From Gemmatimonadota bacterium (lineage in GTDB: Bacteria; Gemmatimonadota; Gemmatimonadetes; Gemmatimonadales; GWC2-71-9): 21,760 nt of DNA. Shown one piece after another: positions 456 to 17,512 of this stretch; positions within the stretch are counted from its first letter, which is position 1, and each line of letters begins with the position of its first letter. The notes beneath the pieces were generated by a model. It had not been told where the DNA came from and made no database searches. It was given only the letters and a program-made list of their open reading frames with translations. Position numbers and translations under genes: made by a program. The DNA lies in the NCBI GenBank assembly GCA_039588295.1, contig JBDHAB010000043.1, forward strand, positions 1-21,760, written 5' to 3'.

Positions 456-516
456 CGCACTCAGACGAACTCAGCCAAGCTCAGAAGAACTTGTTCAGAG
501 CAAATGGGGTTGAGCG
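456..516 (+). repeat. Modular att-like element, distal part only (10-bp-phased repeats plus TCAGAGCAAATGGGGTTGAGCG)
   Basis: Aligns without gaps to 17452-17512 (about 51/61 identical by eye) and to 9411-9466. Confidence 0.85.
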
Positions 517-929
517 CAAGCGCCGATGCCAGTGCATCGACGCTTGCACTCGTGCTCGCCGTCGCTCACGCTCGGGCATCGCATCAGGGGGTCGCGGGTT
601 GACGCCCACTCCACCCCACCTCGCCACTCGCGTCCGCCTCGCGTCAAATCCCGCCGTCCCGACTCACTAAGTTCAAGCCCTGCAACGGTCCTCGGCCTCA
701 CCGGCAGAGGATGGCCTCTGCCGCGTTGTCAGTGTCGTCGAAGCCGTCACCGTTAATCATACCCCACCCGCAGTCACGAATGCTTGCCCCGCGTCGGGCG
801 ATTGGCTTACGTCCTACACACCGCCGCGAACCCACACGTCGAGCAGCGCGTCATCTCCGACAACTCCTTCTCTATTTCTCACGGGAGGCGGCTCGTAGAC
901 TTCGGTCGTTCCCCTCCAAGGAGATGATC

Positions 930-1418
930 ATGCGTAGCATGATTCTCTCGTTCATGCTGCCCGCGGCCTTCGCCTGTCAGCCAGCCACCGTCGAGCGGCA
1001 CGCCACCACCACCGGACCCGAGGTCGAGGCCGTCACAGCCCTTCTCGCTCAGTACTGTGCCAACGTGCGCGCGGGAGACGTAGAGATCTGGGCAACGCTG
1101 CGTGCTGATGACATGGTCCACTTCCCGCCGGATGCACCGCCCATCGTGGGTCTGGACGGATTTCGACCCGTGGCCGAAGGTCTCTTCAGAGAGAACACCA
1201 TCGCGCTGAACGCTCGAGCCGACGAGGTAATCGTGGCTGGGGACCTGGCGGTCATGCGCGCTTCCTTTGAGGAGACGATCACCCCGAAGGATGAGGGGGA
1301 GCCGACTGAGATAGCCGGCAACTGGTTGATCGTCTTGAGGAAACAGGCTGACGGTTCGTGGAAAGTGTGGCGTGACATGTGGAGTATGGTCCCTCCACCA
1401 CAGGCGCCGGCGATGTAA
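930..1418 (+). CDS. DUF4440 / SnoaL-like (NTF2-fold, YybH-type) lipoprotein
   Basis: AAGGAG RBS at 918-923 then ATG 930; signal with lipobox-like AFAC; motifs DDMVHFPPDAPPIVG, EVIVAGDLAV, GNWLIVLRKQADGSWKVWRDMW. Confidence 0.85.
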   Translation: MRSMILSFMLPAAFACQPATVERHATTTGPEVEAVTALLAQYCANVRAGDVEIWATLRADDMVHFPPDAPPIVGLDGFRPVAEGLFRENTIALNARADEVIVAGDLAVMRASFEETITPKDEGEPTEIAGNWLIVLRKQADGSWKVWRDMWSMVPPPQAPAM

Positions 1419-1649
1419 CGACGTACCGATGCCCCCCCTCCGGGACGACTGACGAAACACTGCCATGCAAGGAGAATAGATCCATCACACGTGGTCCTGT
1501 ATAGGGCGGTAGCACGCAGCCAAGCCCTAGCCGCACCAAGACGCCGGCGCGCTGGTAACGGCTCGTCGCGCCGCCTGCTTTGATCTCGCTTAAGCGCTGA
1601 GGGCGGCGCTCACGGGCTGCACGCAGGGCTGATGCGTCTCAGTGAAGAA

Positions 1650-1676
1650 CCCCGAGTGTCACGCCGCGTTTGGGAC
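1650..1676 (+). repeat. Degenerate copy of the GCCCCGAGCG...CGTTCGGGGC hairpin module
   Basis: CCCCGAGTGTCACGCCGCGTTTGGGAC versus GCCCCGAGCGTCACTCGGCGTTCGGGGC at 17309. Confidence 0.65.
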
Positions 1677-1720
1677 GGTCGGTGGGCTGCGGCTCAATCG
1701 AAACTGAACAATTCCCGTCC

Positions 1721-1749
1721 TTGGACATCCGCGTGACCTGCCCTACACT
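1721..1749 (+). promoter_or_regulatory. Putative sigma70-type promoter
   Basis: TTGGAC (1721-1726), 17-nt spacer, TACACT (1744-1749), upstream of the 1976 CDS. Confidence 0.5.
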
Positions 1750-1770
1750 GGGTTGCTGATTTCAAATCTG

Positions 1771-1814
1771 TCGGTGGCCCTCCACGGCCCCGCCGCCTGA
1801 CAGACGCCGCAGTG
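1771..1814 (+). repeat. Conserved 5' leader module, second copy at 4063-4107
   Basis: TCGGTGGCCCTCCACGGCCCCGCCGCCTGACAGACGCCGCAGTG versus TCGGTGGCCTTCCACAGCCCCCGCCGCCTGCCTGATGCCGCAATG. Confidence 0.75.
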
Positions 1815-1975
1815 TGACGCCCGCCTGACGACGAGACCACTCCGCCATCGAAGGAGAATCGCCATTACCTGAACAGGGAGGGACCATGCGCACAGCCCAA
1901 AGCCCTCGCGTGTCGGTGTCTCATGACCACCGTGGCAGGCGCAGTCCCCCGCATCGGCATGGAGGGATGCTTCCA

Positions 1976-2422
1976 ATGAGGCGGCTCAGCATCATGACGC
2001 TACTGGCATCGACGTTCCTCGTCGCAGGCCCGCTCGCCGCGCAGGAGCAACCCGGAACCTTGTTCATCAGGGGGGAATACTGGACCTGTCCGCAGGAGAA
2101 CATCGAGGCGCTCGTTCAGACGTCGGACTCGATCTGGGCACCGATACTCGACGGGATGGTGTCAGACGGTGAGTTCGTCAGATGGGGCTGGGCGACGCCC
2201 TTCCGCGCCTTCCATGGCCAAGGTGAGGAAGCCGAACTTCAAGAAATCGAACCCAAGTGGGACTTAGTAGTCTCCTTCACGGCGAAAAGTGAAGAGGCTT
2301 TCGACTCCGCATGGGAGGAGTACTTCGCTCGACTGAAGGCCAAGTTCCCGGACTTCCAGAGCCCGTGGCAGTTTTGTGACGGGTTGGTGATAGTTGACTA
2401 CTGGGCGCCTGCTTCTCGCTAA
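1976..2422 (+). CDS. Hypothetical secreted protein (148 aa)
   Basis: GGAGG RBS at 1961-1965; Sec signal MRRLSIMTLLASTFLVAGPLAA/QEQ; protein-like composition. Confidence 0.75.
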   Translation: MRRLSIMTLLASTFLVAGPLAAQEQPGTLFIRGEYWTCPQENIEALVQTSDSIWAPILDGMVSDGEFVRWGWATPFRAFHGQGEEAELQEIEPKWDLVVSFTAKSEEAFDSAWEEYFARLKAKFPDFQSPWQFCDGLVIVDYWAPASR

Positions 2423-2447
2423 GGAAGCAGCTGTGTAAAGAGGCCAC

Positions 2448-2476
2448 GGGGCGGCTCCACCAGGGCCGCCCCTCTT
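2448..2476 (+). terminator. Putative intrinsic terminator
   Basis: GGGGCGGCTC-CACCA-GGGCCGCCCC hairpin followed by TCTT, 25 bp after the stop at 2422. Confidence 0.55.
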
Positions 2477-2496
2477 CATCTCGGCTGCAACAAACC

Positions 2497-2528
2497 GCCC
2501 CGAGCGTCACGTGGCGTTCGAGGCTTTT
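2497..2528 (+). repeat. Hairpin module of the repeated element (terminator-like)
   Basis: GCCCCGAGCGTCACGTGGCGTTCGAGGC followed by TTTT. Confidence 0.85.
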
Positions 2529-2627
2529 GGTTACTCGCAATGGTAACGGCCAGGCCATATCTTCACCCCCATGTCCGACATCACGTCCCGACTCTCGACC
2601 GACGACGAGAGGTCAAGAGGACTCGGA

Positions 2628-3737
2628 ATGCACCGGCGTGTACTGTCGCTCATGATCGGCTCGCTTCTTCTCCCGCTGGGCTGCGATGGCCCTACGGGTC
2701 CAACCCCGAGCGAGTTCTGTAGTGACTATCCCGACGCGGCCATCGCGACGTTCGAGGATGCCAACTTGGAGGCGGCGATTAGGGCTGCACTCTCGGTCGG
2801 CGCGCAGGAGGATCTCACCTGCGGCCTGATATCCGGACTCACGGTGTTACTTGCCTGGCGCCGCGAGATCACGAGCCTGGTGGGGATTCAGAATCTCACC
2901 GGCCTGACGGAACTCTGGCTCGACCACAACTCGATCACCGACGTCGACCCGCTGAGTGGGCTCACGGGCCTGACGGGCCTCTGGCTCAACGACAACTCGA
3001 TCGCCGACATCGGGCCGCTACGCGGGCTCACGAGCCTGACGACCCTCGACCTCGACAACAACTCGATCACCGACGTCGGCCCCTTGAGCGGGCTCACGAG
3101 CCTGATAGGGCTCGGCCTCCGCAACAACACGATCAGCGACATCAGTCCTCTCGGAGAGCTCCCTGGCCTGGAGGCCCTCTGGCTTGACGGCAACGCGATC
3201 AGCGACCTCAGCGCATTGAGCGGTCTCACGAGCCTGGAGAGCATTGACCTCAACAACAACGCGATCAGCGACATCGGCGCGGTGAGTGGACTCGCGAGGC
3301 TAACATCTCTCGGCCTCGACAACAACTCGATCCGTGACATTGGGCCGGTGAATGGGCTCACGAACTTGACAACCCTCAACTTTGGCCGCAACGCGATCAC
3401 CGACATCAGCCCGCTAAGTGGCCTCCCGAGCCTGAGAGACCTCGGCCCCAGCAACAATGCGATTAGTGACATCGGGCCTCTCGCAGGGCTCACGAGCCTG
3501 GGGAACCTCGGCCTCAGCTCCAACGCGATCAGCAACACCAGGGCGCTCGCTGGGCTCACGAACCTGTCGGCCCTGGCGCTCAACAACAACCCAAACCTCA
3601 CCGACATCCAGCCGTTGCTCGACAACACAGGACTCGGCGCGGGCGATGTCGTGTATCTCCGTTCCACGAGCGTGAGTTGCACGGACGTGGCCGCGCTGGA
3701 AGCCAAGGGAGTGACGGTGCAGTCCGACTGTTCGTGA
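2628..3737 (+). CDS. Internalin-like leucine-rich repeat lipoprotein
   Basis: GAGGA RBS then ATG 2628; lipobox LPLGC; cap motif FEDANLEAAIR; about 12 22-aa repeats LxxLxLxxNxIxDIxPLxGLTx (66-bp DNA periodicity); C-terminal cap. Confidence 0.92.
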   Translation: MHRRVLSLMIGSLLLPLGCDGPTGPTPSEFCSDYPDAAIATFEDANLEAAIRAALSVGAQEDLTCGLISGLTVLLAWRREITSLVGIQNLTGLTELWLDHNSITDVDPLSGLTGLTGLWLNDNSIADIGPLRGLTSLTTLDLDNNSITDVGPLSGLTSLIGLGLRNNTISDISPLGELPGLEALWLDGNAISDLSALSGLTSLESIDLNNNAISDIGAVSGLARLTSLGLDNNSIRDIGPVNGLTNLTTLNFGRNAITDISPLSGLPSLRDLGPSNNAISDIGPLAGLTSLGNLGLSSNAISNTRALAGLTNLSALALNNNPNLTDIQPLLDNTGLGAGDVVYLRSTSVSCTDVAALEAKGVTVQSDCS

Positions 3738-3760
3738 ACGACGCCGCGCCGTTGGCGATC

Positions 3761-3960
3761 AGCCCGAGCGTCAGGCGGCGCTCGGGGCATGCGGACGATA
3801 GTAAGTCGGTAAGAGGGTACGAAGGTAGTCCTACGATCTTACCGTCCTACCCTCCTACCGCCTTCCGTGGTGTGCGAAGAGTGTGCAGCGGACGACGGTA
3901 AGCACGTAGGATGGTAGGCTGGTAACCTACCCGCCTACCAGCCCATCTTCCTACCATCAT
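3761..3960 (+). repeat. Modular element: hairpin, GGTAG/CTACC palindrome, GTGGTGTGCGAAGAGTGTGC, second GGTAG/CTACC palindrome
   Basis: Hairpin 3761-3788; 8-bp-periodic block about 3797-3866; direct-repeat motif 3867-3886; second block about 3893-3958. Same layout as 9970-10140. Confidence 0.85.
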
Positions 3961-4000
3961 CTACATACACGACCATTTCACTTCAATTGTTGAGTCTTTG

Positions 4001-4049
4001 CGACTCTTGCGATCCCGTTGCACGGAGCGTAAGCTAGCGCCGCACAACT
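4001..4049 (+). promoter_or_regulatory. Duplicated promoter module, second copy at 7146-7194
   Basis: 25-bp identity CGACTCTTGCGATCCCGTTGCACGG with 7146-7170 and shared CCGCACAACT; TTGCGA (4007-4012)-N17-TAAGCT (4030-4035). Confidence 0.7.
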
Positions 4050-4104
4050 TGAAGCAACTGTATCGGTGGCCTTCCACAGCCCCCGCCGCCTGCCTGATGC
4101 CGCA

Positions 4105-4752
4105 ATGATCCGCCACGCGCTCACAGCAACAATCTGCACCGCCTTACTGACGGTCGCCGGCGAACGCCTCTGCGCCCAGGACATCTCGGTCGGAGGCAGA
4201 CTCGGCCTGGTCGGCGGGGCCGTGTGGTTCGAGGACGAAGAGGCCAACGATATGAACCGGCCGAGGGCTGGTTTCCAGATCGGCGGCGTAGTGGCGTACC
4301 GATCGCATTCGATCCTCTCGATGCAGGCTGAACTCTGGTACGTGCAGAAGGGCTGGACGGAAACGCAAGGCGGCGGAGGCCGGCGGTTGACGTACGTGGA
4401 GTTGCCCGTGCTCCTGACGGTGACTGCTCCCTGGAAGACCGCCCCCCAACTGCTCGCGGGTGCGTCTGCGAGTCTGGAGTTGGGTTGCTCGGTCACCGGC
4501 GTGCGCGGGGTGGGCAGTGTGAGCTGCGACGATCCGCAGGTGGAGTGGCATCACACGAAGGCCCAGTTCGGAACCTGGCTTGGACTGGGAGTGCGGCGGC
4601 GGCTGGGCTCGAGCCATCTCGCTGTTCAACTGCTGGCCAATCTCAATCTGACCAACCTGAACAGCGAGCCTCTGCCACGGGGATACGTCAGACTGCTGTC
4701 GGCTACCCTATCGGCCACTTACGTGATCGCCCTTGGAGGAACGGCACGATGA
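4105..4752 (+). CDS. Outer-membrane beta-barrel protein (PorT/OMP_b-brl_2-like)
   Basis: Signal peptide, then ISVGGRLGL, GFQIGG, SMQAELWYVQKG, LTYVELPVLL amphipathic strands. Start placed at ATG 4105. Confidence 0.8.
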   Translation: MIRHALTATICTALLTVAGERLCAQDISVGGRLGLVGGAVWFEDEEANDMNRPRAGFQIGGVVAYRSHSILSMQAELWYVQKGWTETQGGGGRRLTYVELPVLLTVTAPWKTAPQLLAGASASLELGCSVTGVRGVGSVSCDDPQVEWHHTKAQFGTWLGLGVRRRLGSSHLAVQLLANLNLTNLNSEPLPRGYVRLLSATLSATYVIALGGTAR

Positions 4753-5849
4753 GTCCACGTCGACCATCCGCGTTTCGAATCGGAGCCGCCGTCGCCACGT
4801 TCGCGCTCGTGACGGCCGCATGTGGAGAGACGCCGCTCGAACCAGTAACCGTTACGCCGGTCGAGGGCCTCCAAGGCTTCGAGGCGTCGCTCGACAGCAT
4901 CCGGGTGGCGCTCCGGATCCCGGGCCTGGCTGCCGCGATCGCCCAGGGGGACGGGATCGTCTGGTCGCGCGGATTCGGACTGGCCGACGTCGAGCGTGGC
5001 AGGCCCGCGACCGACACGACGTCCTTCTACGTGGCCTCGGTTACGAAATCGGTGGCCGCCATCGTACTGATGCAGCTGGTCGAGGAGGGGCTGGTGAACC
5101 TCGACGAGCCCATCAGCGACTACGGCGTGAACCTCGAAGCCGACGGCGTGATCACCGTGAAACACGTCTTCAATCACACCTCCGAGGGCAACCCCGGCAC
5201 CGTGTTTCGGTACAACGGGGGCCGCTACATCAAGCTGGGATCCGTGATGTTGCAGGCGACCGGCGAGACGTTTGCGCAGTTGCTCGCGGAGCGAATTGTG
5301 CAACCTCTCGGGCTCCGCCACACCGCGCCGGATGTCGAGCTCCTGGCGGATTTCTACGTGACCGGTCTCCCCAGACAAGCGTTCCTGGCCAACGTCGCGA
5401 TGCCGTACGAGCTGGTGGACGGCCAGGTCGTTCCCTTCGCCCGGATTCGTCATTTCAGCCCAGCCGCGGGGTTGGTGACCTCCGTGCGGGACCTCGCACG
5501 CATCTCGATCGCCCTAGACGCCGGTCACCTGCTCGGTTCCCCGGCCGGAGAGGAAATGCTGTCGCCCTCGATCGAGATATACGGGCCCAGCAGGACGTAC
5601 GGTCTGGGCTGGTTCGTGCAGATGTACGAGGGCGTCAAGCTGGAGTGGCACTTCGGTCTGGCACTCGGGCATTCGTCCCTCATGATCCGCGCGCCTCAGC
5701 AGGAGCTCGTGTTCGTGGCAGTCGCCAATACGAGCAGTTTGACCGGGGCATACGACATGGGCGCCTCCGACATCATGGTGACCGGTCCCGGACGGTTGTT
5801 CGTCGAGTCGTTCGTGCTGGGAAACGAGCCCCTTCCCAGCACTAGGTAG
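4749..5849 (+). CDS. Serine hydrolase, beta-lactamase class C / PBP family lipoprotein
   Basis: ATGA overlap with the upstream stop; lipobox TAAC; IPGLAAAI, GFGLAD, SxxK (ASVTKS), PGTVFRYN, YGLGWF, WHFG. Confidence 0.92.
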   Translation: MSPRRPSAFRIGAAVATFALVTAACGETPLEPVTVTPVEGLQGFEASLDSIRVALRIPGLAAAIAQGDGIVWSRGFGLADVERGRPATDTTSFYVASVTKSVAAIVLMQLVEEGLVNLDEPISDYGVNLEADGVITVKHVFNHTSEGNPGTVFRYNGGRYIKLGSVMLQATGETFAQLLAERIVQPLGLRHTAPDVELLADFYVTGLPRQAFLANVAMPYELVDGQVVPFARIRHFSPAAGLVTSVRDLARISIALDAGHLLGSPAGEEMLSPSIEIYGPSRTYGLGWFVQMYEGVKLEWHFGLALGHSSLMIRAPQQELVFVAVANTSSLTGAYDMGASDIMVTGPGRLFVESFVLGNEPLPSTR

Positions 5850-6022
5850 TACCCATGCTGACATAGGCTAATCTCTTCGTGCGATTCAGGTGAACTCCGA
5901 GTCCCGATCCCCCAGCATGGACAGATCAGGGGTTGGAACTCACCTTTTGGGGCGTCGGCTCGCAGCGCGCGCACTGAGACCTTGATTAGGTGGAACGCCG
6001 GACGGCGAAGAGGTCACCGCTG

Positions 6023-6622
6023 ATGGAACAACGGTCAGCAGTGGTATGGCCGGGAGCCATGAGCTGGGTGACCACACGGTTGGACTACCTCGTGAACTGG
6101 GCGCGGTCCAACAGTCTCTGGCCGATGCCGTTCAACACGGCGTGCTGCGCCATCGAGTTCATGGCGACGTGGGCGTCGCGGTTTGATGCCGCGCGCTTCG
6201 GCATGGAGTGGATGAGGTTCTCGCCTCGCCAAGCCGATGTCCTCATTTGCAGCGGGCGCGTGCCCGTGAAGCTCGCTCCCGTGATCCGTCGCATCTATGA
6301 CCAGATGCCTCAGCCAAAGTGGGTGATTGCGATGGGGGCGTGTGCCTCGACCGGCGGGGTGTTCGACACCTACGCAATGGTGCAGGGCATCGACCTCATC
6401 GTCCCGGTCGATGTCTACATCCCGGGGTGCCCACCTCGTCCAGAAGGTCTCGTTTACGGTATCCTGCTACTCCAGAAGAAGGTGCGCGGCGAGACGTTAC
6501 GTGATTCGTCTCTGCGCGAAGAGCATCCGCTTGCTCCCGGAGGGCTGCGGATCCCTCCTCGACTGGTCGACGAACTGGCGGAGCCGTTCGGCAACTCGAT
6601 CCACCAAACGCGGTCGGCGTAG
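6023..6622 (+). CDS. nuoB: NADH-quinone oxidoreductase subunit B, stand-alone copy
   Basis: [63 protein letters not shown]; all four cluster N2 cysteines present. Start could be 6059. Confidence 0.93.
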
Positions 6623-6773
6623 CGATAGTGGTGAGCTGCCGCCGCGCAGCGACCGGGCCCGGCCGTGTCACAAGCGACGCGAGATGTGCAACTGGGTCGA
6701 GAAGACGCCGTAGTGAGACCAGTTGCGCCGGGCCGTCACTCACTTCTCCTTGCGAACCCGGCAGGAGCCACTC

Positions 6774-7091
6774 ATGAGAGACAGCTACAGTGCTTCTTGG
6801 GTCATCGTCCGACCGCTCTTCATTTCGCTTGCACTCGGTCCGGCCGTCCTCACCAGTGCCGAGGCGCAGGCTGAGCCTGAGATCCCGTTGCCGTTGGAGT
6901 TCGTGGCCGCCGGTGTGGTTTCGACTGACGGCGGGGAAGCATTCCCAACCCTGACGCCGGACGGCACGAGTCTCTATTTCGCGACGCACGAACGCGGATG
7001 GACGGGTTTGCACATCGTCGTGTCGCTAGCGGCGGGAACCGTGCGCAACTCGCACACGGCGTTCCGGACTCCTGTCTTTGCGCTCCGGTGA
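6774..7091 (+). pseudogene. 3'-truncated TolB-like/PD40 beta-propeller gene
   Basis: AGGAG RBS, signal peptide, then AAGVVSTDGGEAFPTLTPDGTSLYFAT (one PD40-type blade). Resemblance ends near 7030 and the frame stops after 105 aa. Confidence 0.7.
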
Positions 7092-7145
7092 GCGATGCGC
7101 GACGCCTCGGGCGGGAGGATGAACAGAGTGTCAACAACGACAGCA

Positions 7146-7194
7146 CGACTCTTGCGATCCCGTTGCACGGGGTACAACGTAGGCCCGCACAACT
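7146..7194 (+). promoter_or_regulatory. Duplicated promoter module upstream of qor
   Basis: Copy of 4001-4049; TTGCGA-N17-CAACGT. Confidence 0.65.
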
Positions 7195-7207
7195 GATAGA
7201 AACTCCC

Positions 7208-8176
7208 ATGAAGGCGATTCGCTTCCATCAGACCGGGCCGCCCGAGGTGCTTCAGTGGGAGGATGTCGACGTCGGCTCGCCGGGGCCGGGCGAGGTGCGG
7301 CTGCGGCACACGGCCGTGGGGTTGAACTTCATCGACACCTATCACCGCAGCGGCGTCTATCCGGCCGAAGTGCCCGGGGGCTTGGGGGTCGAAGGCGCCG
7401 GGGTCGTCGAGGAGGCAGGTCAGGAGACTCCGTTTCGACCGGGCGACCGGGTGGCGTACGCCGGTGGACCGCTGGGAAGCTACTCGCAGCAGCGGTGCAT
7501 GCCGGCCGACCGGCTGGTCGCATTGCCGGACCAGATCGACGACCAAACCGCCGCGGCCGTTACGCTGAAAGGCCTGACGACCCACTACCTGCTCCGCCGC
7601 ACCTACGACGTGCAGCCGGGCGACACCATCCTGGTCCACGCCGCGGCGGGCGGCGTCGGACTGCTGCTCTGCCAGTGGGCCGCGCATGTGGGCGCGACGG
7701 TGATCGGCACGGTGGGCAGCCGGGACAAGGCCGACCTGGCGGCGGCCCACGGCTGCCATCACCCAGTACTCTATCGTGACGAGGACTTCGTGCAGCGGGT
7801 CCGCGAACTGACCGGTGGCGAAGGCGTGCCCGTCGTGTACGACTCGGTCGGCAAAGCCACGTTCGAGGGATCGTTGAACTGTCTCCGGCCGCTGGGCCTG
7901 ATGGTCACCTTCGGCCAGTCCTCGGGGATGGTTGACCCGCTGCCGGTTCACGAACTGACCCGCCGCGGGTCGCTGTATCTCACACGGCCGACGCTGGCGA
8001 GCTACACCGCCACGCGACAGCAGCTGGAGGCGAGCGCCGCTGAGTTGTTTGCAGTCGTGGCGAACGGCGCGGTCCGGGTGCGAATCGGGCAGACCTATCC
8101 GCTGGCGGACGCCGTCCAGGCTCATCGCGATCTGGAGGGTCGGCGCACGACTGGCGCGACGGTGTTGGCGCCTTAG
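7208..8176 (+). CDS. qor: NADPH:quinone oxidoreductase (zeta-crystallin/MDR family)
   Basis: MKAIRFHQTGPPEVLQWE, GLNFIDTYHRSG, GVEGAGVV, HAAAGGVG nucleotide-binding motif, YDSVGK, FGQSSG, GSLYLTRPTL, AHRDLEGRRTTG. Confidence 0.95.
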   Translation: MKAIRFHQTGPPEVLQWEDVDVGSPGPGEVRLRHTAVGLNFIDTYHRSGVYPAEVPGGLGVEGAGVVEEAGQETPFRPGDRVAYAGGPLGSYSQQRCMPADRLVALPDQIDDQTAAAVTLKGLTTHYLLRRTYDVQPGDTILVHAAAGGVGLLLCQWAAHVGATVIGTVGSRDKADLAAAHGCHHPVLYRDEDFVQRVRELTGGEGVPVVYDSVGKATFEGSLNCLRPLGLMVTFGQSSGMVDPLPVHELTRRGSLYLTRPTLASYTATRQQLEASAAELFAVVANGAVRVRIGQTYPLADAVQAHRDLEGRRTTGATVLAP

Positions 8177-8220
8177 GCCGCGATCGCTGAGTGTCCAACA
8201 TTCGCTCAGGAGGGTAGCGC

Positions 8221-9180
8221 ATGAAGTGGATCACCATATCGGTCACGGTGAGTGTGCTTTGTGGCGGCCTACGGCCGAGCCCTGCCAGAGCGCAGTTCCT
8301 CCGGTGTGAAGTCACCAATGAACCGAGCCAGGTACTGCTGAGCGACGATGACGTCGTGAACTTCCTCCAGGCTCTGGACGCCCTGGAATCCGCATCGGAT
8401 TCTGCGTCCGTGCTTCAGCGGATGTATGTGGACCGGGCGAGCCCAGGACTCAGTGAGTACCTGAGATCCCACGAGTTCGAGGCCGAGGACTTCGTCGAGG
8501 CGATCCGCAATGAGGAGGGGAAGTACCAGGGCCTCCGAGACTTGCCGAGCCAGCTCGCCTCTCAGGACGGAGCCACACGCTCGGCGCTTGCTTCGCTCAG
8601 GGTACAGATTCCGGACGTTCAGTTCGTGCCTGTCTACTTCTTTGTCGGTATCGGTGATGCGGGACTCAACGCGGAGCCGTCCGAGTACGGACTGCTGCTT
8701 GCCATCACGGAGACGACGTCAGATTTCAGTGTCGTGAAGCTCGCCATCGTCCATGAGACCGTGCATGTGCAGCAGGCTCTGGCCATCGGGATCGAAGAGT
8801 ACATGCAGGTCTTTGGGCCGAAGATGAGCTTGCTGGCACTCGCCATCAGAGAGGGTACAGCAGAGTTCTTTACGTTCCTCAGCACCGGAGAGTATGGCAA
8901 GAAGAGGGCCTACGAATACGTGCTCGAGAACGAAGCAACCCTGTGGCAGCGATTCGAGCACGATATGCTCGAGCGTCTGCCTGGAGAATGGATGTTTGCC
9001 ACCCCCAGTGATCCCGAGCAGCCGGTCGACCTCGGCTACATCATGGGAGCGCGGATCGTGGAGGCCTTCTACAGTAGCGGCGACGACAAAGCTCAGGCGG
9101 TGCGCGAGATTCTGGCCATTACTGACTACGAGCTGTTCCTCGAGCAAAGCGGATACGCTGAGCAGTTCACGCCGCCTTGA
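8221..9180 (+). CDS. Secreted putative Zn-dependent protease (DUF2268-like)
   Basis: GGAGG RBS, signal peptide, HExxH (HETVH), downstream EGTAEF, DLGYIMGARIVEAFY. Confidence 0.8.
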   Translation: MKWITISVTVSVLCGGLRPSPARAQFLRCEVTNEPSQVLLSDDDVVNFLQALDALESASDSASVLQRMYVDRASPGLSEYLRSHEFEAEDFVEAIRNEEGKYQGLRDLPSQLASQDGATRSALASLRVQIPDVQFVPVYFFVGIGDAGLNAEPSEYGLLLAITETTSDFSVVKLAIVHETVHVQQALAIGIEEYMQVFGPKMSLLALAIREGTAEFFTFLSTGEYGKKRAYEYVLENEATLWQRFEHDMLERLPGEWMFATPSDPEQPVDLGYIMGARIVEAFYSSGDDKAQAVREILAITDYELFLEQSGYAEQFTPP

Positions 9181-9210
9181 GGGCACGTACCGACAACTCG
9201 AAATCACCAA

Positions 9211-9495
9211 GCCCCGAGCGGCACGCCGCGTTGCGAAGGACGGTAAGTGGGTAGGATGGTAGGCTGGTCGTCCTACGCTCTCACCGCCCTACCCTCCTAC
9301 CGCCTTCTGTGGTGTGCGAAAAGTCTGCGAACTCAGCCAAACGGAGCCAAACTCAGCGCGACGCAGCCAGAGAACTCGCGTCTGTAGTTGCTTACGCAGC
9401 AATACGTAACCGCACTCGGGCCGACGCAGCCGAACGCAGCGAGACTCGTTCAGAGCAAATGGGGTTCATTCGCGGTTCGACTCCCGCCCCGGACA
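9211..9495 (+). mobile_element. Most complete copy of the modular element; candidate attR-type attachment site ending in a tRNA 3' fragment
   Basis: Partial hairpin 9211-9232; GGTAG/CTACC block about 9238-9308; GTGGTGTGCGAAAAGTCTGCGAAC 9309-9332; 10-bp-phased AACKCAGCC repeats; TTACG-N8-CGTAA 9392-9409; TCAGAGCAAATGGGGTT 9450-9466; tRNA-like end 9474-9495. Confidence 0.7.
9474..9495 (+). other. tRNA 3'-end fragment (T-loop to discriminator), probably tRNA-Leu; candidate att core
   Basis: GG-TTCGACT-CCCGC-CCCGGAC-A has the spacing of T-loop, 3' T-stem, 7-nt acceptor strand and discriminator A. No matching 5' half upstream. Confidence 0.7.
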
Positions 9496-9954: not shown

Positions 9955-9969
9955 CTGGTACCACGCCAC

Positions 9970-10140
9970 GCCCCGAGCGTCATGCGTCGTTCGGGGCTTT
10001 CCAAATGGCGGTACGTCGGTAAGACGGTAGGGCGGTACCGTCGTACCGTCCTACCCTCCTGCTGCCATCTGTGGTGTGCGAAGAGTGTGCGAACACGCAC
10101 AGGATGGTAAGTCGGGGGGACGGTAGGAGGGTATGTCCTG
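9970..10140 (+). repeat. Modular element: hairpin+TTT, GGTAG/CTACC palindrome, GTGGTGTGCGAAGAGTGTGCGAAC, GGTAG half-block
   Basis: GCCCCGAGCGTCATGCGTCGTTCGGGGCTTT 9970-10000; periodic palindrome about 10005-10068; direct-repeat motif 10071-10094. Confidence 0.88.
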
Positions 10141-10532: not shown

Positions 10533-10746
10533 CGGCCGTCAGCTATCAACTCTCAGCCTTCAGCTTTCAGCTGCCCTCCCTCTTCTCAGTCGTCCCGGTC
10601 GTCAGAGTCGTCTCAGTCGTCTGAAAAGAGAGGATGAGTGGGGCAGGAGGCGCAGAGGGGGCAGAACAGCTGCTGCCAGTGCGGCAGCATCGCCTACTCT
10701 CCTACCCTCCTAGCATCTGCCGTCCTACCGCCCTCCCGCCCTCCGA
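10525..10746. repeat. Compound short-period repeat tract (7-mer, 9-mer, 8-mer)
   Basis: 7 x TCAGCYN-like units 10525-10573; 4 x CNNNGTCGT 10585-10620; GGCAG/CCTACC 8-mer arms about 10640-10746. Confidence 0.75.
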
Positions 10747-10796
10747 CGTACGTTTGCACCTCACGTTGACCTTCTGACCAGCAACCCACTGATCCC

Positions 10797-13700
10797 ATGA
10801 CGAAGAATATCTTCCGTACCGCGCTCCTCGTGACCTGGCTCGCCATCCCCGGTGCCGACCTCGCGGCGCAAGCGGCCGACGCGCGCCTCGGCGAGACGAA
10901 CTACAAAGCCCTCGCGTTCCGCAACATCGGACCCGCCATCAACGGCGGCCGCATCGCGGACATCGCGATCCACCCCGACAACGGCAACGTCTGGTACGTG
11001 GCCGTGGGCTCGGGCGGCGTGTGGAAGACCGAAAACGCCGGCACCACCTGGCAGCCGATCTTCGACGAGCAACCCTCCTACTCGATCGGCTCGATCACAC
11101 TCGACCCCAACAACCCCGCCACCGTCTGGGTCGGGACGGGCGAGAACATCGGTGGCCGACACGTGGGCTACGGCGACGGCGTGTACAAGAGCACCGACGG
11201 CGGGAAGAACTGGCAGAACATGGGGCTCAAGGCCTCGGAACACCTCTCGAGGATGCTGGTGCATCCCGAGAACTCCGACGTCGTGTGGGTGTCGGCCCAG
11301 GGACCGCTGTGGACCCCCGGCGGTGAGCGCGGGCTCTACAAGACCACCGATGGCGGCGCGACGTGGCGCAACGTGCTGAGCGATAACGAGTGGACCGGTG
11401 TCACGGACATCGTGATGGATCCGCGCGACCCCGACGTCCTCTACGCTGCCACCTGGGACCGCCACCGCACCGTGGCCGCCTACCTGGGCGGCGGGCCTGG
11501 CTCCGGCATCCACAAGAGCACCGACGGCGGCGAGACCTGGACCAAACTCACCACCGGGTTGCCGTCGTCCAACCTCGGGAAGATCGGGCTCGCGATCTCG
11601 CCACAGGATCCGGACATCGTGTACGCCGCGATCGAGTTGGACCGTCGGACGGGAGGCGTGTACCGCTCCACCAACCGCGGCGGATCGTGGACCAAGATGT
11701 CCGACGCGGTCTCGGGCGCCACCGGGCCGCATTACTACCAGGAGCTCTACGCCTCACCGCACCACTTCGGGCGGCTCTACCTCGTCAGCGCCGTGACGCT
11801 CATCTCCCACGACCACGGCGCGACGTTCCGGGGCATGAACCTGGCCAAGAAACATTCGGACGACCACGCGATTGCGTTCCACAAGGACGATCCGGACTAT
11901 CTGCTGGTGGGCAGCGACGGCGGGTTGTACGAGACCTACGACGACATGAAGACGTGGCGGTTCCTCCGCAATCTCCCGGTAATGCAGTACTACAAGATCT
12001 CGGTGGACGACGCCCAGCCGTTCTACTTCGTCTACGGCGGGACACAGGACAACGGCTCCAACGGCGGCCCCTCGCGCACCAACACCCAGCACGGCATCCG
12101 GAACGCCGATTGGTTCAAGACCCTGGGCGCGGACGGCCACGGCTCCGCGACCGAGCCGGGCAATCCGAACATCATCTACGCCGAGACGCAGCAAGGCGGG
12201 CTGCACCGGGTGGACCGGATCACCGGAGAGCAGGTGTTCATCCAGCCGCAGGCGCGCGAAGCCGAGCCCTTCGAGCGGTACAACTGGGATGCGCCGATCG
12301 AGATCAGCCCTCACAACCCCACGCGCATCTACTTCGCGTCACAGCGCGTGTGGCGCACGGACGATCGCGGCAACAGCTGGACGCCCATCTCCAATGACCT
12401 CACGCGCAACGAGGAACGCATCACGCTACCGATCAGGGGCGCGCAACAGAGCTGGGACAATCCGTGGGACCTCTCGGCCATGTCCAACTACAACACGATC
12501 ACCTCGTTGGCCGAGTCGCCGCTCGTGGAGGGCCTGCTCTACGCCGGCACTGACGATGGTCTGCTGCAGGTGACCGAAGACGGCGGTACCACCTGGCGCC
12601 GCATCGAGGTCGGCAGCATTCGCGGCGTGCCCGCCACGGCATTCGTGAACGACATCAAGGCCGACCTGTTCGACGCCGGCACCGTGTACATGGCGCTCGA
12701 CAACCACAAATACGGCGATTTCAGCCCCTATGTGGTGAAGAGCACGGACCGCGGGCGCTCGTGGCGGTCGATCGCGGGCGACCTTCCCGACCGGCACCTC
12801 GTGTGGCGCGTGGTGCAGGACCACGTGAACCCGCAACTCGTCTTCGCCGCGACGGAGTTCGGCATCTTCTTCACCGTAAACGGTGGTGCAGCGTGGATCG
12901 AGCTCGAAGGGGGCGTGCCCACCATCGCGTTGCGTGACATCACCCTTCAGCGGACGCACCAGGACGTCGTGGCGGGCTCGTTCGGCCGCGGCATCTTCAT
13001 CCTGGACGATTACACGCCGCTCAGGAACTTGAGCGAAGAAGTGCTGGCCCGTGAGGCGGCGCTCTTCCCCGTACGCACCGCGCACTGGTATGTGCCGAAG
13101 AATGTGGTGGGCTCCGAGGGACACGACGACTACCAAGCGGAGAACCCGCCGTTCGGCGCCGTGTTCACCTATCACCTGCGCGACGGTTACCAGTCAATGG
13201 AGGCGGCGCGGAAGAAACTGGAACGCGACCTGGACCGGGACGAGAATGTCCCGTTCCCCGGCTGGGAGTCGTTAGAGCAGGAGATGCGGGAGCAAGGGCC
13301 GACGGTCCAGGTTGTCGTGCGCGACCAGACGGGGACCGTGGTGAACCGCGTGACCGGTCCCACGTCGTCCGGCGTTCACCGCGTGAGTTGGAATCTTCGA
13401 TACGCGAGCACGGACCTGGTCGACTTCGGTGACACCGGCACCGGCAACGGGTTTCCCGTCGGTCCCGGCACCTACACGGCCACGCTGGTCAAGATCGAGG
13501 CGGGCGAGGTCACCGAGCTTGCGGGTCCCGTGTCGTTCGACGTCGCGCTGCTCAGGGACGGGGCGCTACCACGGGTGTCCAACGAGGTCATCGCCCAGTT
13601 CCGTGCCGAGCTGGAAGCGTTCCAGCAGGACCTCGCGCGCGCCGACAATGTCCTGGACGAACTGATAGAGAAGATCGAAGCCATGCAAACGGCGCTGGAT

Positions 13701-14036
13701 CGCGCCGAAGTCGGTGATACGGCGCTGACGCGCCGGCTGTACATGACGCGGCTCGAGCTGCTCGACCTCCGCCAGGCGATCGAGGGCAGCGAGGCGAAAG
13801 ACGAGATCGGCGAACGCGATCCGCCATCGCTCGGGAACCGGTACTTCGTGGGCGTGCGCGGTCTCAACACGACCTACGGCCCGACCGAGCTCCACCGCAG
13901 TACGGTCGCAGCAGGCCGCAACGAACTCGCCGCACTCGAGACCGAGCTGGACCGGATCGTCGAGCAGGTAATGCCGGAACTCGAACGCGCGCTCGAGGCG
14001 GCGGGGGCACCGCCCATCGAGGGGACCGGGCGATAG
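10797..14036 (+). CDS. Secreted VPS10/sortilin-like BNR (Asp-box) repeat protein, glycosyl hydrolase-like
   Basis: Signal peptide; FRNIGPAINGGRIADI; many Asp-box repeats (KSTDGGKNW, KTTDGGATW, KSTDGGETW, RSTNRGGSW, RTDDRGNSW); GGTQDNGS; C-terminal helical region. Confidence 0.92.
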   Translation: MTKNIFRTALLVTWLAIPGADLAAQAADARLGETNYKALAFRNIGPAINGGRIADIAIHPDNGNVWYVAVGSGGVWKTENAGTTWQPIFDEQPSYSIGSITLDPNNPATVWVGTGENIGGRHVGYGDGVYKSTDGGKNWQNMGLKASEHLSRMLVHPENSDVVWVSAQGPLWTPGGERGLYKTTDGGATWRNVLSDNEWTGVTDIVMDPRDPDVLYAATWDRHRTVAAYLGGGPGSGIHKSTDGGETWTKLTTGLPSSNLGKIGLAISPQDPDIVYAAIELDRRTGGVYRSTNRGGSWTKMSDAVSGATGPHYYQELYASPHHFGRLYLVSAVTLISHDHGATFRGMNLAKKHSDDHAIAFHKDDPDYLLVGSDGGLYETYDDMKTWRFLRNLPVMQYYKISVDDAQPFYFVYGGTQDNGSNGGPSRTNTQHGIRNADWFKTLGADGHGSATEPGNPNIIYAETQQGGLHRVDRITGEQVFIQPQAREAEPFERYNWDAPIEISPHNPTRIYFASQRVWRTDDRGNSWTPISNDLTRNEERITLPIRGAQQSWDNPWDLSAMSNYNTITSLAESPLVEGLLYAGTDDGLLQVTEDGGTTWRRIEVGSIRGVPATAFVNDIKADLFDAGTVYMALDNHKYGDFSPYVVKSTDRGRSWRSIAGDLPDRHLVWRVVQDHVNPQLVFAATEFGIFFTVNGGAAWIELEGGVPTIALRDITLQRTHQDVVAGSFGRGIFILDDYTPLRNLSEEVLAREAALFPVRTAHWYVPKNVVGSEGHDDYQAENPPFGAVFTYHLRDGYQSMEAARKKLERDLDRDENVPFPGWESLEQEMREQGPTVQVVVRDQTGTVVNRVTGPTSSGVHRVSWNLRYASTDLVDFGDTGTGNGFPVGPGTYTATLVKIEAGEVTELAGPVSFDVALLRDGALPRVSNEVIAQFRAELEAFQQDLARADNVLDELIEKIEAMQTALDRAEVGDTALTRRLYMTRLELLDLRQAIEGSEAKDEIGERDPPSLGNRYFVGVRGLNTTYGPTELHRSTVAAGRNELAALETELDRIVEQVMPELERALEAAGAPPIEGTGR

Positions 14037-14093
14037 TCGGCGACGAACGAATCCCGTTGCGGGCTTACCGCCACGATACGCCTCGCTGACAGT

Positions 14094-16574
14094 ATGCTAA
14101 CCGTCCCGCGGTTCGGCCGCTCGAGGGTCTGCTCGGTGCTGCGACGGCTTCGGGGTCTCCTCCCGGTGGCCGCTACCGTGCTGCTTGCCGGGTGCTCCGA
14201 TGCACGTCTCGTCGAATGGCCCGCCGGTGACCTCCGCCTCTCGATCGATGGCACCGGACATATCAGCCGCATGACCGACGCCAACAGCGGGCGCGACTAC
14301 CGGGCGGACGACGTCCCATCGCCTGTGCTGTCGGTGCAGACCGACGGTGCACTCCATCCACCACTTTCGTTTGCGTGGGACCCCGAGAATGACGTTGCCG
14401 AGTTCTCCTACGAGGGAGGGGTGACCGCGCGCGTCAACGTGACGCCGAGGGAGACCCACGTGGTGCTGGAGGTCGCGGCGGTGGAGCCCCTCGAGAACGT
14501 TGAGTTGGTCGTGTGGGGCCCGTTCCCAACCACCCTCTCCGACACGATCGGCGAGACGGTTGGGGTCGTACGCGACTCGGAGTTTGCCATCGGCATTCAA
14601 GCATTGAACATCAAGACGCTCGGCGGCCTTCCCTGGAACGACAACGACTTCCCTCCGCAGGTCGATCTGTTCGAAGACGGTGATTTCAGCAACCTGAGTC
14701 GCGAAGGAAGACGGGGGGTGCTCTTCCGGGTTGAGGCGGCAAAGCCCGAGGAGTTCGGGAGTACGCTGCAAGCCTACACCCGTGACCGAAGCCGCGACCG
14801 TGTAATCGAGAACTGGAACCACGAACATTACGTCGCGCCGGCGTTCGACGACGGGGGCGTCATTGGATCCAAGATCGCACTGTTCGGCGCGCCAACCGAA
14901 CAGGTGCTCGAGGCACTTGGTGCCATCGAGCTTGCAGAGGGGCTTCCTCATCCAACCGTCGACGGTGAATGGGGGAAGACCGCGCGCTCCGCGTCTGCCG
15001 CGTATACCATCCTCGACTTCAGCGAAAACGATGTCGATCAGGCCATCGCCTGGACCGAGCGCGCGGGTCTCCGATACCTGTATCACCCAGACCCGTTCCA
15101 GACCTGGGGGCACTTCGAGCTGAAGCGGGATCGTTTCCCCAACGGACGGGCGGGCTTGAGGCGTGCGGTCGACATGGCCGAGGCCTCCGGCGTGCACGTC
15201 GGCGTCCATACGTTATCGAACTTCATTACCACGAACGATCCCTACGTCACGCCCATCCCCGATCCTCGCCTCGCAAAGGTGGGTGGGAGCGGGCTCAGCG
15301 AAGCCGTCGACGCGACGCAAACCGAGATCCCCGTGGCGTCACCGGAGTTCTTTGCGCAGTACGACAACAACACCCTGCGCACGGTGGTCGTGGGAAACGA
15401 GCTGATCCAATACCGCACGGTGTCCGAGGCCGAGCCATGGAAGCTGATCGACTGTGCGCGGGGAGCGTTCGGCACGACGGCGTCGGCGCACGCGGCCGGG
15501 GACGAAGTGGCGTTGCTCGCCGACCACGGCTACCGCGTCTTCCTCACGAACGCCGATCTCAGCCGAGAGGTGGCGACCAATATCGCCGAGCTGTTCAATG
15601 AGACCGGCGTGCGGCAGATCTCGTTCGATGGGTTGGAGGGCAACCAGTCGACTGGCATGGGGAACTACGGTGAGGCGCTGTTCACCACCACCTGGTACGA
15701 CAACCTCTCGGGAGACATCCGTACCCACCTGATTGCCGATGCCAGCCGCACGAGTCACTACTTCTGGCACATCTACACGCGGATGAACTGGGGCGAGCCG
15801 TGGTATGCCGGGTTCCGCGAGAGTCAGACCGAATACCGCATGAAGAACCAGCCCTACTTCCGGCGCAACCTCATGCCCGGCATGCTGGGGTGGTTCCGTA
15901 TGACCAAGGAGACCACGATCGAGGACGTCGAGTGGATGCTCGCGCGTTCGGCCGCGTTCGATGCCGGCTACGCGTTCGTGACGGGCTACGAGGAGTTGGA
16001 GGGCAACGGCTTCACCGACCGCATTCTCGACGCGATCGGCTTGTGGGAACGCGCCAGGATGGCTGACGCATTCCGCAGCGAGCAGAAGCAGCGCATGGAG
16101 GATGTTGAGAGCGAGTTCCACCTCGAGGCCGCTGGAGACCATGCCTTCACGCTGACCCAAGTGCATCCGCAGGTGTTCCGCCACGAGCGCGGTGTTCGCC
16201 AGCCGGGAGAACCAGCGTCGTCTACGTTCGAGTTCGCGAACCCCGGGGAAGCTCAGACGATGCGGTGGATTCTGTCTGCCGAAGACGGTGCCGTATCGCG
16301 GGTGCGGCTTTCCATCGACAATCGCGAGACGATCACTCTACCCGTGCGTTTGCGTGAAGGATGGTCACTGCGGTACGAAGGTGGGTCGACGGTGACAATC
16401 CACGACGCCAGTCACCGACGGGACGGAGGGGTCAGCGTCGACGAGCGTTGGTTCCAGATTGCGCCCGGTCGACACTCCGTCACGCTGGACGCACAGCTGA
16501 CTCCGGCGGATAACGCGAAAGCGCGGTTGGAGCTCAGGCCCCTGGGACTAGGAGAGTCGATCAATGTTCCGTGA
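14094..16574 (+). CDS. Large hypothetical lipoprotein (possible glycoside hydrolase-like barrel)
   Basis: 826-aa ORF with coding-like codon use; lipobox LLAGC; segments GVHTLSNFI, QISFDGLEG, RMNWGEPWY. The start may be a later GTG. Confidence 0.8.
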   Translation: MLTVPRFGRSRVCSVLRRLRGLLPVAATVLLAGCSDARLVEWPAGDLRLSIDGTGHISRMTDANSGRDYRADDVPSPVLSVQTDGALHPPLSFAWDPENDVAEFSYEGGVTARVNVTPRETHVVLEVAAVEPLENVELVVWGPFPTTLSDTIGETVGVVRDSEFAIGIQALNIKTLGGLPWNDNDFPPQVDLFEDGDFSNLSREGRRGVLFRVEAAKPEEFGSTLQAYTRDRSRDRVIENWNHEHYVAPAFDDGGVIGSKIALFGAPTEQVLEALGAIELAEGLPHPTVDGEWGKTARSASAAYTILDFSENDVDQAIAWTERAGLRYLYHPDPFQTWGHFELKRDRFPNGRAGLRRAVDMAEASGVHVGVHTLSNFITTNDPYVTPIPDPRLAKVGGSGLSEAVDATQTEIPVASPEFFAQYDNNTLRTVVVGNELIQYRTVSEAEPWKLIDCARGAFGTTASAHAAGDEVALLADHGYRVFLTNADLSREVATNIAELFNETGVRQISFDGLEGNQSTGMGNYGEALFTTTWYDNLSGDIRTHLIADASRTSHYFWHIYTRMNWGEPWYAGFRESQTEYRMKNQPYFRRNLMPGMLGWFRMTKETTIEDVEWMLARSAAFDAGYAFVTGYEELEGNGFTDRILDAIGLWERARMADAFRSEQKQRMEDVESEFHLEAAGDHAFTLTQVHPQVFRHERGVRQPGEPASSTFEFANPGEAQTMRWILSAEDGAVSRVRLSIDNRETITLPVRLREGWSLRYEGGSTVTIHDASHRRDGGVSVDERWFQIAPGRHSVTLDAQLTPADNAKARLELRPLGLGESINVP

Positions 16575-16733
16575 AGCGGGTATTGCCCGCGTCAACGCAA
16601 CAATGCCTATTGGTGCCGGTTGACGCCGATTGACGTCAAAACACCCGAGCGGCAAGTCGCCACCCCCCTTGAGGTTCCCGTCGTCGTCGACCGCTTCGCC
16701 GAGCTGCGGCAGCCGCTTTGCGAGTGAACCGCT

Positions 16734-16934
16734 TCAGCGTTCTCTCTCGAGGATGATCTCGTAATACTTCGCGGCGCCATAGCCGCCGATCCCTGGGGCA
16801 AACACCTGCACCAAACGCCAACCGTCTCGCGCGTGCTTGTGGATTATGTCCTGGTAAGTCTGCTTGGCCGCCTTGCGGGCAGCCAAGATCCCTTCGCCCA
16901 AGCGGACGAATTTGTATTCGTAGTTCTGTCTCAC
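16734..16934 (-). CDS. DUF4177 domain small protein (66 aa)
   Basis: GGGGAG RBS then GTG at 16934; YEYKFVRL...IIHKHARDGWRLVQVF...YEIILER. Confidence 0.85.
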   Translation of the reverse strand: MRQNYEYKFVRLGEGILAARKAAKQTYQDIIHKHARDGWRLVQVFAPGIGGYGAAKYYEIILERER

Positions 16935-17137
16935 GATCGTTCGCTCCCCTTCGTGCGTTTGACGTTGGATAGCTGTTCGGTAATGTGGTGGCCCTTGGGA
17001 GTCTACCGTCCCATTGCCTCCGCGACTACCGCTCCCTGCTCCCCTCACATGAGCGCCGTAACTAGCCCCCTAATCTTCCCATGGTCCCCGAAAGACTCCA
17101 ACAGCCCGCGCCGTGGCGGTCGTCGGTGAACCGCGGG

Positions 17138-17287
17138 ATGCCCGCTGAGCAGATCCGCAAGCGACTCGGCACCATGACATTGGCGAAGCAAGTGTGTGAG
17201 GATCTGCTACGGGACGCGCTAGACGCGGGTGGAAGCGACAACATTGCCGTTATTGTCGGGCGCGCAGTAGCCAAGGACGCCGTGTAG
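17138..17287 (+). pseudogene. C-terminal fragment of a PP2C-family Ser/Thr phosphatase
   Basis: EQIRKRLGTMTLAKQVCEDLLRDALDAGGSDNIAVIVGR contains the terminal PP2C GGxDNIxVIV motif; all upstream motifs (e.g. DGMGG, CSDGL) are absent. Confidence 0.8.
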
Positions 17288-17308
17288 AGCCGAGGGTGGC
17301 GGCCAACG

Positions 17309-17512
17309 GCCCCGAGCGTCACTCGGCGTTCGGGGCTTTCGGTTCGATATCACACATCTGTGGTGTGCGAAGAGTGTGCGAACTCAGTCAAACTCAGAGC
17401 AACGCAGCCCTAGAAACCGGTCCTGTAACTGCTTACGCAGCAATACGTAACCGCGCTCAGACGAACGCAGCCAAATGCAGCGAAACTCGCTCAGAGCAAA
17501 TGGGGTTGAGCG
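17309..17512 (+). repeat. Modular att-like element lacking the GGTAG insert and the tRNA fragment
   Basis: Hairpin+TTTC 17309-17340; GTGGTGTGCGAAGAGTGTGCGAAC 17360-17383; phased repeats; 25 bp (17430-17454) identical to 9389-9413; TCAGAGCAAATGGGGTTGAGCG 17491-17512. Confidence 0.9.

Follow-up and report, generated by a model that had tools for sequence, protein, structure and literature searches.

A co-oriented 30-bp hairpin repeat at exchange points among tRNA-targeted island remnants in a Gemmatimonadota genome

In T4-type phages, neighbouring promoter(early) stem-loop elements (PeSLs) are reported to recombine and to form mini-circles, and no dedicated enzyme is identified for this in the accessible sections of the two reports (PMC2839356, PMC4122927). 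The short dRS3 repeat of Neisseria is a target of a phage-encoded recombinase (PMC1797815). At tRNA genes, the anticodon loop is a standard crossover site of tyrosine integrases (Islander, PMC4383910), and elements without an integrase can stack through recombination of attachment (att) sites, which is known as accretion of cis-mobilizable elements (CIMEs; PMC5704250); stacked integrase-less islands include the ssrA islands of Dehalococcoides (PMC3146451) and the tycheposon islands (bioRxiv 10.1101/2020.12.28.424599). In this study we analyzed a 21,760-nt stretch of DNA (the window), which is the entire contig C43 (JBDHAB010000043.1) of a 160-contig, 4.5-Mb Gemmatimonadota genome with 64% GC (GCA_039588295.1); the runs containing it are listed as marine sediment metagenomes. 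An earlier note, made from the sequence alone, had described seven co-oriented copies of one att-like element between unrelated genes. We found that two different things are combined there: a 30-bp hairpin, H, which is a separate and nearly genus-restricted repeat, distinct from the att arm, co-oriented and located at exchange points, and a long module, which is an att arm with a tRNA-Pro(GGG) anticodon-loop core. We see about an even chance that the window is part of a decayed array of tRNA-targeted islands in which H marks the seams and units are shuffled, PeSL-like, by recombination between direct H copies. Below, G000 is the window's own genome, C-numbers are contigs, L-numbers are H loci, and genes were called with a custom codon-model script.

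H is an imperfect palindrome whose top strand folds into a 4-nt loop on a 13-bp stem that includes two G-T pairs; it can equally be read as an 11-6-11 arrangement (positions 2-12, 13-18 and 19-29). Positions 18, 20 and 21 are nearly invariant across genomes, and the T fraction is 0.46 in the tail after H versus 0.22 upstream. The H pattern has five matches in the window, all on the + strand (1651, 2499, 3763, 9972 and 17311), and none in 100 shuffles; a sixth copy, truncated at its 3' end, lies at 9210. TCAGAGCAAATGGGGTT, at the end of the arm, has three + strand matches (495, 9450 and 17491) and again none in shuffles, so that both counts are far above chance. The positions, strand and order of modules in the earlier note all hold, and the single element does not: two of its seven copies are H alone, the one at 456-516 is an arm end without H, two stop after GTGTGCGAA, and only those at 9210 and 17308 are complete. 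Across the whole genome, H has 53 copies matching at least 24 of 30 positions (61 nhmmer matches), versus arm parts in 10, 3 and 5 places. The GGTAG/CTACC palindrome, which had been taken as an optional part of the module, belongs to a separate repeat family that is also present between tRNA genes in contig C4. Short tandem palindromic repeats of the CAGCTATCAAC and GGTAG/CTACC types also occupy window 10540-10760, before the Vps10/BNR gene, and this class too recurs between the C4 tRNA genes.

H was found in seven of eight congeners and in none of 32 other relatives. In a sample of the phylum it is present in 8 of 301 genomes, namely the own genome, four congeners (6-39 copies) and three of the 296 others (1-2 copies); ten further genomes reached via H loci have 1-22 copies each. 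Matches in genome collections comprise 64 stretches, all titled Gemmatimonadota or Gemmatimonadales, at least 140 metagenome stretches match H, and viral contigs gave no match. No earlier description of the repeat was found in a literature search of listings and abstract starts, from whose coverage subscription journals mostly fell out. All 12 H copies on own-genome contigs of at least 60 kb lie within about 16 kb of a contig end, and the rest are on smaller contigs; the repeats are not scattered next to core genes. Neighbouring copies within 6 kb have the same orientation in 118 of 125 pairs (94%; median spacing 1.1 kb), 69 of 118 H-to-H intervals contain one gene, and genes between copies mostly run with H (126 with, 20 against). 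H is intergenic in 303 of 304 distinct copies, and 167 of the 193 upstream genes scored point into it, with a median distance of 59 nt from the stop codon. The four window stops to which the earlier note had tied hairpins (3737, 9180, 9954 and 17287) are indeed at these positions; the last two are weak as gene ends, as 9954 closes an open reading frame that has no Pfam match and is not called by the coding model, and 17287 closes a gene fragment. At C4:457 in G000, the H copy is flipped where it stands, with its flanks running as they normally do, which suggests template switching within the palindrome. In one cassette seen in two sources (L016:730-1315 and L240:78-654), H position 14 is A at both ends in one source and T in the other; this pattern implies that H variants are homogenised per lineage.

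Comparison of flanks places exchange at H. With at least 100 nt of common flank as the criterion, the 304 distinct H copies include 23 pairs with a common upstream flank, 46 with a common downstream flank and one with both (about two more really have both); related pairs are not independent, and the homology of H itself draws alignment ends towards it. L210/L062, scored as downstream-only, has both flanks in common and was removed before the analysis of positions; L125/L145, scored as upstream-only, probably has both in common, and three upstream-sharing pairs are overlapping or near-identical loci with short opposite flanks. In downstream-sharing pairs (98-99.8% identity), similarity breaks off at the 5' arm of H or within it; in upstream-sharing pairs (94-96%), it breaks off no more than a few bases from the 3' end of H. 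Two one-gene H-to-H cassettes (688 bp, 91%; 586 bp, 90%) are found again in other genomes, where the neighbours on both sides differ. Two window genes occur in the relative G004 in swapped order, joined by an H where homology to the window stops, and public contigs join H directly to the window leaders at 849 and about 1690 via short variable linkers. Among the internal ends of shared blocks, 17 of 71 touch H, 11 of them in both partners, and 6.7 would be expected if all ends were intergenic. The earlier note was right that the cargo is unrelated; the cargo is also shuffled among relatives, and breakpoints fall at the hairpin, in line with the test that the note proposed. Variants of H did not localise the crossover site within it.

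The long module (GTGTGCGAA twice, phased repeats, TTACG-N8-CGTAA and TCAGAGCAAATGGGGTT) is the arm on the island side of an attachment site for a tyrosine integrase. It ends in AATGGGGTT, and in C72 and relatives the sequence continues from there into a tRNA 3' half; ARAGORN identified tRNA-Pro(GGG) at four loci where AATGGGGTT runs into a tRNA, and full genes at six more. The junction of arm and tRNA lies in the anticodon loop. With this core and a displaced tRNA-Pro(GGG) 3' half in view, the suggestion of a tRNA-targeting integrase island was well founded; the proposed target, tRNA-Leu, was not: the core is that of tRNA-Pro(GGG), and a Leu(TAA)-like tail occurs at just one site (9470-9495). 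At 8 places a tandem GTGTGC[CG]AA repeat precedes the core by 117-128 nt, and at 8 it follows directly on a tRNA 3' end, a placement that would be expected of arm-type sites flanking attP on both sides. The same Pro core is also joined by other arms with different repeats, fragments of Ser, Ala, Arg and Met tRNAs likewise begin near position 30-33, and truncated integrases adjoin tRNAs. The window contig yielded neither a tRNA gene nor a tyrosine recombinase, in agreement with the integrase-less character noted earlier. Its three Pro cores are in tandem orientation, and the tRNA-Pro(GGG) gene is missing from its own assembly. In G041, a complete single-contig chromosome, about 880 kb separate an H-arm-core copy from the tRNA-Pro(GGG) gene; thus arms also move as passengers. 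The tRNA-anchored arms, split 3' halves and tRNA fragments together identify these regions as decayed stacks of tRNA-targeted islands, and the arm modules are of a known kind, i.e., integrase-less island remnants stacked at tRNA genes. Copies of tRNA-Pro(GGG) interrupted by hairpin-like inserts, one behind the anticodon loop and one within the T arm, were seen at window 512-663 and in G003:C3, G001:C72 and G022:C167, and in relatives a split copy sits directly before the intact gene. G000 also has a cluster of 19 tRNA genes with many duplicate isoacceptors (C14:47647-63751), similar to phage- or island-borne tRNA arrays.

A possible course of events is as follows. Tyrosine-integrase islands would have stacked at tRNA genes and lost their integrases, leaving arms and tRNA halves. 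H may have begun as a terminator closing cargo transcription beside an arm or an integrase 3' end, an origin to which its position before arms and opposite integrase genes points (10 of 12 integrase matches within 4 kb are antiparallel to H). Repeated H copies (30-38 bp, longer where an upstream hairpin or downstream promoter is shared) could then have become crossover points for host recombination, at which a one-gene unit would loop out and re-enter at another H with its expression signals in place. Repeated exchange would keep H copies alike within a lineage, and other, ragged deletions would give rise to gene fragments and promoter fusions. Exchange through short homology fits better than a spacer-matching tyrosine recombinase because half-copies of H begin at scattered positions (about 9 to 17) and position 16 is unmatched: the two copies differ there in 7 of the 22 pairs that share the upstream flank and in 18 of the 44 that share the downstream flank.

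Several observations weigh against shuffling through H. The other 54 of the 71 block ends are ragged and away from H, which accordingly accounts for a clear minority of breakpoints. No circle joints at 97% likeness were found for window 400-4300 in assembled contigs; joints at 88% likeness were considered as circles and read as other loci of repeat families. Of 193 upstream genes, 26 point away from H, and another terminator-like hairpin precedes it in 36 of 304 copies, so that H is not needed there as a terminator; moreover, a terminator scan flags just one window copy, and the exact 11-6-11 geometry and well-conserved loop are more than a terminator needs. A length of 30-38 bp is short for RecA-type exchange, and the scheme does not explain the appearance of additional H copies beside new genes.

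The strongest competitor, which is possible and clearly the less probable of the two, is that a dedicated site-specific recombinase acts on H in trans, as either a tyrosine recombinase that uses the 11-6-11 duplex or an enzyme that reads the folded top strand, so that the arrays would be integron-like with a new kind of site. The imperfect 11-6-11 palindrome with its almost invariant positions, the clean H-to-H cassettes, the co-orientation that is retained even around the 20 inverted genes and the antiparallel integrase matches all agree with such an enzyme. So do the half-copies whose ends cluster near the centre of H: several copies with the right half only begin at positions 13-15, and three with the left half only end at 14-16. 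However, the spacer mismatch at position 16 and the ragged ends of most units speak against it, and there is no candidate enzyme. Among the families searched, none tracks H, although these absences are weak because the genomes are incomplete. The integron integrase IntI is above the cut-off in 9 of 14 genomes, missing from the H-rich G003 and G045 assemblies and present in H-poor ones, and in G041 it is about 200 kb from the nearest H. Y1 transposases are found in 14 of 17 genomes, including H-negative genera, and are missing from G046; IS110 is found in 7 of 17 (missing from G003 and G004), and resolvase in 5 of 17. Reverse transcriptase, searched in the own genome only, gave one gene (contig C111). 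The own genome has a true IntI (C3:774-1691); in a scan for attC core sites, classical attC-like sites were found on other contigs (C54:14418 and C36:43738), apart from the H arrays, and the window had none.

It is unlikely that H is a repetitive extragenic palindromic (REP) or miniature inverted-repeat transposable element (MITE)-like repeat, or a plain terminator, inserting after island stop codons, with breakpoints gathering at H only because it is intergenic and fragile. Imperfect hairpins are typical of REPs, H is almost always intergenic, the linkers 3' of H vary, the C4:457 copy is inverted between normal flanks, and Y1 genes are present in the group. On the other hand, H is found on small contigs and, on large ones, in the outermost 16 kb only, it is 94% co-oriented, and no Y1 gene was found near H in the own genome. 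H moves together with its downstream promoter or arm at 98-99.8% identity, and the upstream flank changes at its edge.

Att stacking alone, in which an integrase encoded elsewhere adds every unit at a tRNA att site as a small island lacking its own integrase and H is just part of the arm, is contradicted as a full account, and we regard it as improbable. The arm and core are genuine, the tandem repeat is on both sides, many tRNA fragments start near the anticodon loop, truncated integrases lie beside tRNAs, and H precedes Pro, Ser and Ala arms. Nevertheless, of 289 H copies only 14 are followed by the Pro arm and 17 by any tRNA fragment, arms also occur without H, and in G041 arm copies are far from the cognate tRNA. 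It is thus the hairpin that bounds cassettes, and not the att-arm module as the earlier note had it. Its suggestion that copies might lie near a tyrosine integrase also found no support: in tblastn searches with nine own-genome integrases as queries, none of 25 arm repeats had an integrase match within 1.5 kb. That misassembly of a metagenome bin rich in repeats produced the mosaic, for which the location of H on short contigs and near contig ends could speak, is very improbable, because public contigs identical to the window or with 0-1 differences cover three of its junctions (in a single study, possibly of the source sample) and the same architecture is present in other genomes, including a single-contig chromosome.

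The downstream flanks of H form families, consisting of att arms and of promoter-plus-leader blocks. The P1 leader, a repeat of about 65 nt with 24 matches in the own genome and 72 distinct copies overall, follows 38 of 289 H copies, and 26 of the 72 P1 copies have H within 260 nt upstream. P1 stands before 55 genes whose products fall into 38 unrelated protein clusters; many have signal-peptide-like starts (judged by eye). The repeat may bind a regulator or be a second point of exchange. Sigma-70-like matches are no more frequent than chance (2 found versus 2.5 expected), and the one at 1722-1749 is weak alone. P1 was also considered as a structured RNA, which is unsupported: the consensus fold is a single 5-bp stem without covariation. 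At two places in G000 (C99:6667 and C105:3264), the leader and first codons of an expanded Ser/Thr kinase family are fused to unrelated reading frames, which represents promoter capture after H. Clustering of the 713 proteins encoded within 5 kb of H gave 446 clusters, with kinases, secreted proteins and one three-member integrase cluster among the 70 largest, which were labelled by their sequence starts. One cluster comprises 74 kinase-domain genes, indicating a kinase expansion concentrated in H arrays.

Features of the window are listed in Table 1. Its cargo consists of unrelated accessory genes and gene fragments, and an Rfam scan gave just two miRNA-family matches, attributed to chance. 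The full arm copy at 9210 is covered by an identical public contig (8791-9456). A lone NuoB-type gene (5990-6622) stands apart from any nuo operon, and many public contigs pile up there. The gene fragments at 17138-17287 and 10224-10532 are C-terminal ends of proteins that are intact at C11:63156 and C1:249447; the former presumably corresponds to the end of a PP2C phosphatase, by resemblance.

Table 1. Positions of hairpins, att-arm parts, leaders and cargo in the window
Position	Strand	Feature
456..511	+	Core-proximal att-arm end: phased repeats, then TCAGAGCA, core AATGGGGTT (tRNA-Pro(GGG) anticodon loop)
512..663	+	tRNA-Pro(GGG) 3' half split by two hairpin-like inserts; pieces 585-600 and 645-663; attR-type remnant
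849..1418	+	Shared leader family and SnoaL/DUF4440 gene; 86.6% to G004:C126 cassette, there directly after H
1648..1677	+	Degenerate copy of hairpin H; an identical public contig runs across it
1696..1830	+	Shared promoter block with sigma-70-like match at 1722-1749, then P1 leader repeat (1767-1828)
1976..2422	+	Cargo gene, no Pfam match; 89.6% to G004:C126; in both, homology stops at H
2496..2525	+	Hairpin H
2571..3737	+	Cargo: leucine-rich-repeat protein
3760..3955	+	Truncated arm: H (3760-3789), GGTAG/CTACC palindrome, GTGTGCGAA (3870), second palindrome
3999..4114	+	P2 and P1 leader repeats (P1 4061-4114) before the next cargo block
4105..9180	+	Cargo: outer-membrane beta-barrel, PF00144 serine hydrolase, lone NuoB-type gene, PD40 fragment, zinc-binding-dehydrogenase-family gene, DUF2268 gene
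9210..9466	+	Full att arm (GTGTGCGAA 9312, TTACG-N8-CGTAA 9392-9409, core 9458-9466) after 3'-truncated H and palindrome
9470..9495	+	tRNA T-arm/acceptor fragment, tRNA-Leu(TAA)-like, fused to Pro core (chimeric att); compared by eye with C74 gene
9969..10140	+	Truncated arm: H (9969-9998), palindrome, GTGTGCGAA twice (10074, 10085), partial palindrome
10797..16574	+	Cargo: Vps10/BNR-repeat protein (91% to G008:C77, neighbours differ) and 826-aa protein
17308..17337	+	Hairpin H, best window copy; contigs of unrelated sequence join at its edges
17349..17507	+	Full att arm: GTGTGCGAA twice (17363, 17374), 10-bp-phased repeats, TTACG-N8-CGTAA (17433), core
17592..17640	+	Degenerate terminus of interrupted tRNA-Pro 3' half

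It is worth considering what these arrays mean for island evolution. According to the accessible part of the tycheposon preprint (bioRxiv 10.1101/2020.12.28.424599), intact mobile elements make up 3.6% of island material. Most tRNA-anchored island DNA thus lies outside recognisable mobile elements, and how the remainder is assembled is the wider question; as the short, near-invariant H marks many seams, this question becomes directly testable with a 30-bp substrate. If plain homology drives the exchange, PeSL-type shuffling would extend from phages to a bacterial chromosome; if a dedicated enzyme does, a new cassette recombination system would be at hand. In the latter case tRNA-anchored islands would hold a genus-wide, integron-like platform, with a 30-bp site that is neither attC, dif nor tRNA att and that doubles as a terminator and links promoter-bearing cassettes, att arms and integrase ends. 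In addition, H is a practical marker for the accessory genes of an uncultured marine genus.

Compared with known systems, H differs from REP repeats with their REP-associated tyrosine transposases (RAYTs) and from MITEs in that it has no linked Y1 transposase and no scatter through the core genome in both orientations. The attC sites of integrons carry AAC/GTT boxes and are far longer than H; the H consensus has no such boxes, its units usually carry promoters, and IntI neither adjoins nor tracks H, which is weak evidence given the incomplete genomes. Integrons and clusters of attC sites lacking integron integrases (CALINs) resemble the H arrays in having co-oriented, mostly one-gene units and a palindromic site, with units reshuffled among relatives (PMC8618304), and the own genome has an IntI elsewhere. 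The pdif sites of Acinetobacter plasmids likewise have two 11-bp arms and a 6-bp spacer between shuffled modules; in the accessible text, however, they are AT-rich XerC/XerD sites with alternating orientation and matched spacers, whereas H is GC-rich, directly repeated (118/125 pairs) and unlike the sites in Table 1 of that paper (PMC13141974). With units lacking an integrase, att arms, tRNA 3' halves that start in the anticodon loop and fragmented integrases, the locus also resembles CIME-type accretion at tRNA genes (PMC5704250, PMC3146451, bioRxiv 10.1101/2020.12.28.424599, PMC4383910), but the units described in these sources are bounded by att repeats, whereas most seams here are H without an att core.

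Two further systems are found in Neisseria and in T4-type phages. Like H, dRS3, of the Neisseria intergenic mosaic elements (NIMEs), is a genus-specific short palindrome beside variable genes and a proposed substrate for homologous or site-specific exchange; as described in the accessible text, its 8-nt centre is free and it lies between short non-coding RS elements, whereas the centre of H is conserved and whole genes lie between H copies (PMC1797815). PeSLs share with H a terminator-like stem-loop, often followed by a shared promoter, that lies between variable genes and marks indels and swaps (PMC2839356, PMC4122927, accessible sections); exchanges at H likewise map to the motif, and a promoter block and P1 come next in the 38 of 289 copies mentioned above. 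Differences are that H is located in islands of a cellular chromosome rather than in a T4-type phage, with no viral-contig match, that the hairpin alone is invariant and is joined to many promoter families and att arms, and that circles have been shown for PeSLs and were not seen for H in assembled contigs. Taken together, H-bounded shuffling works like PeSL exchange and resembles dRS3 arrays, and it belongs to neither.

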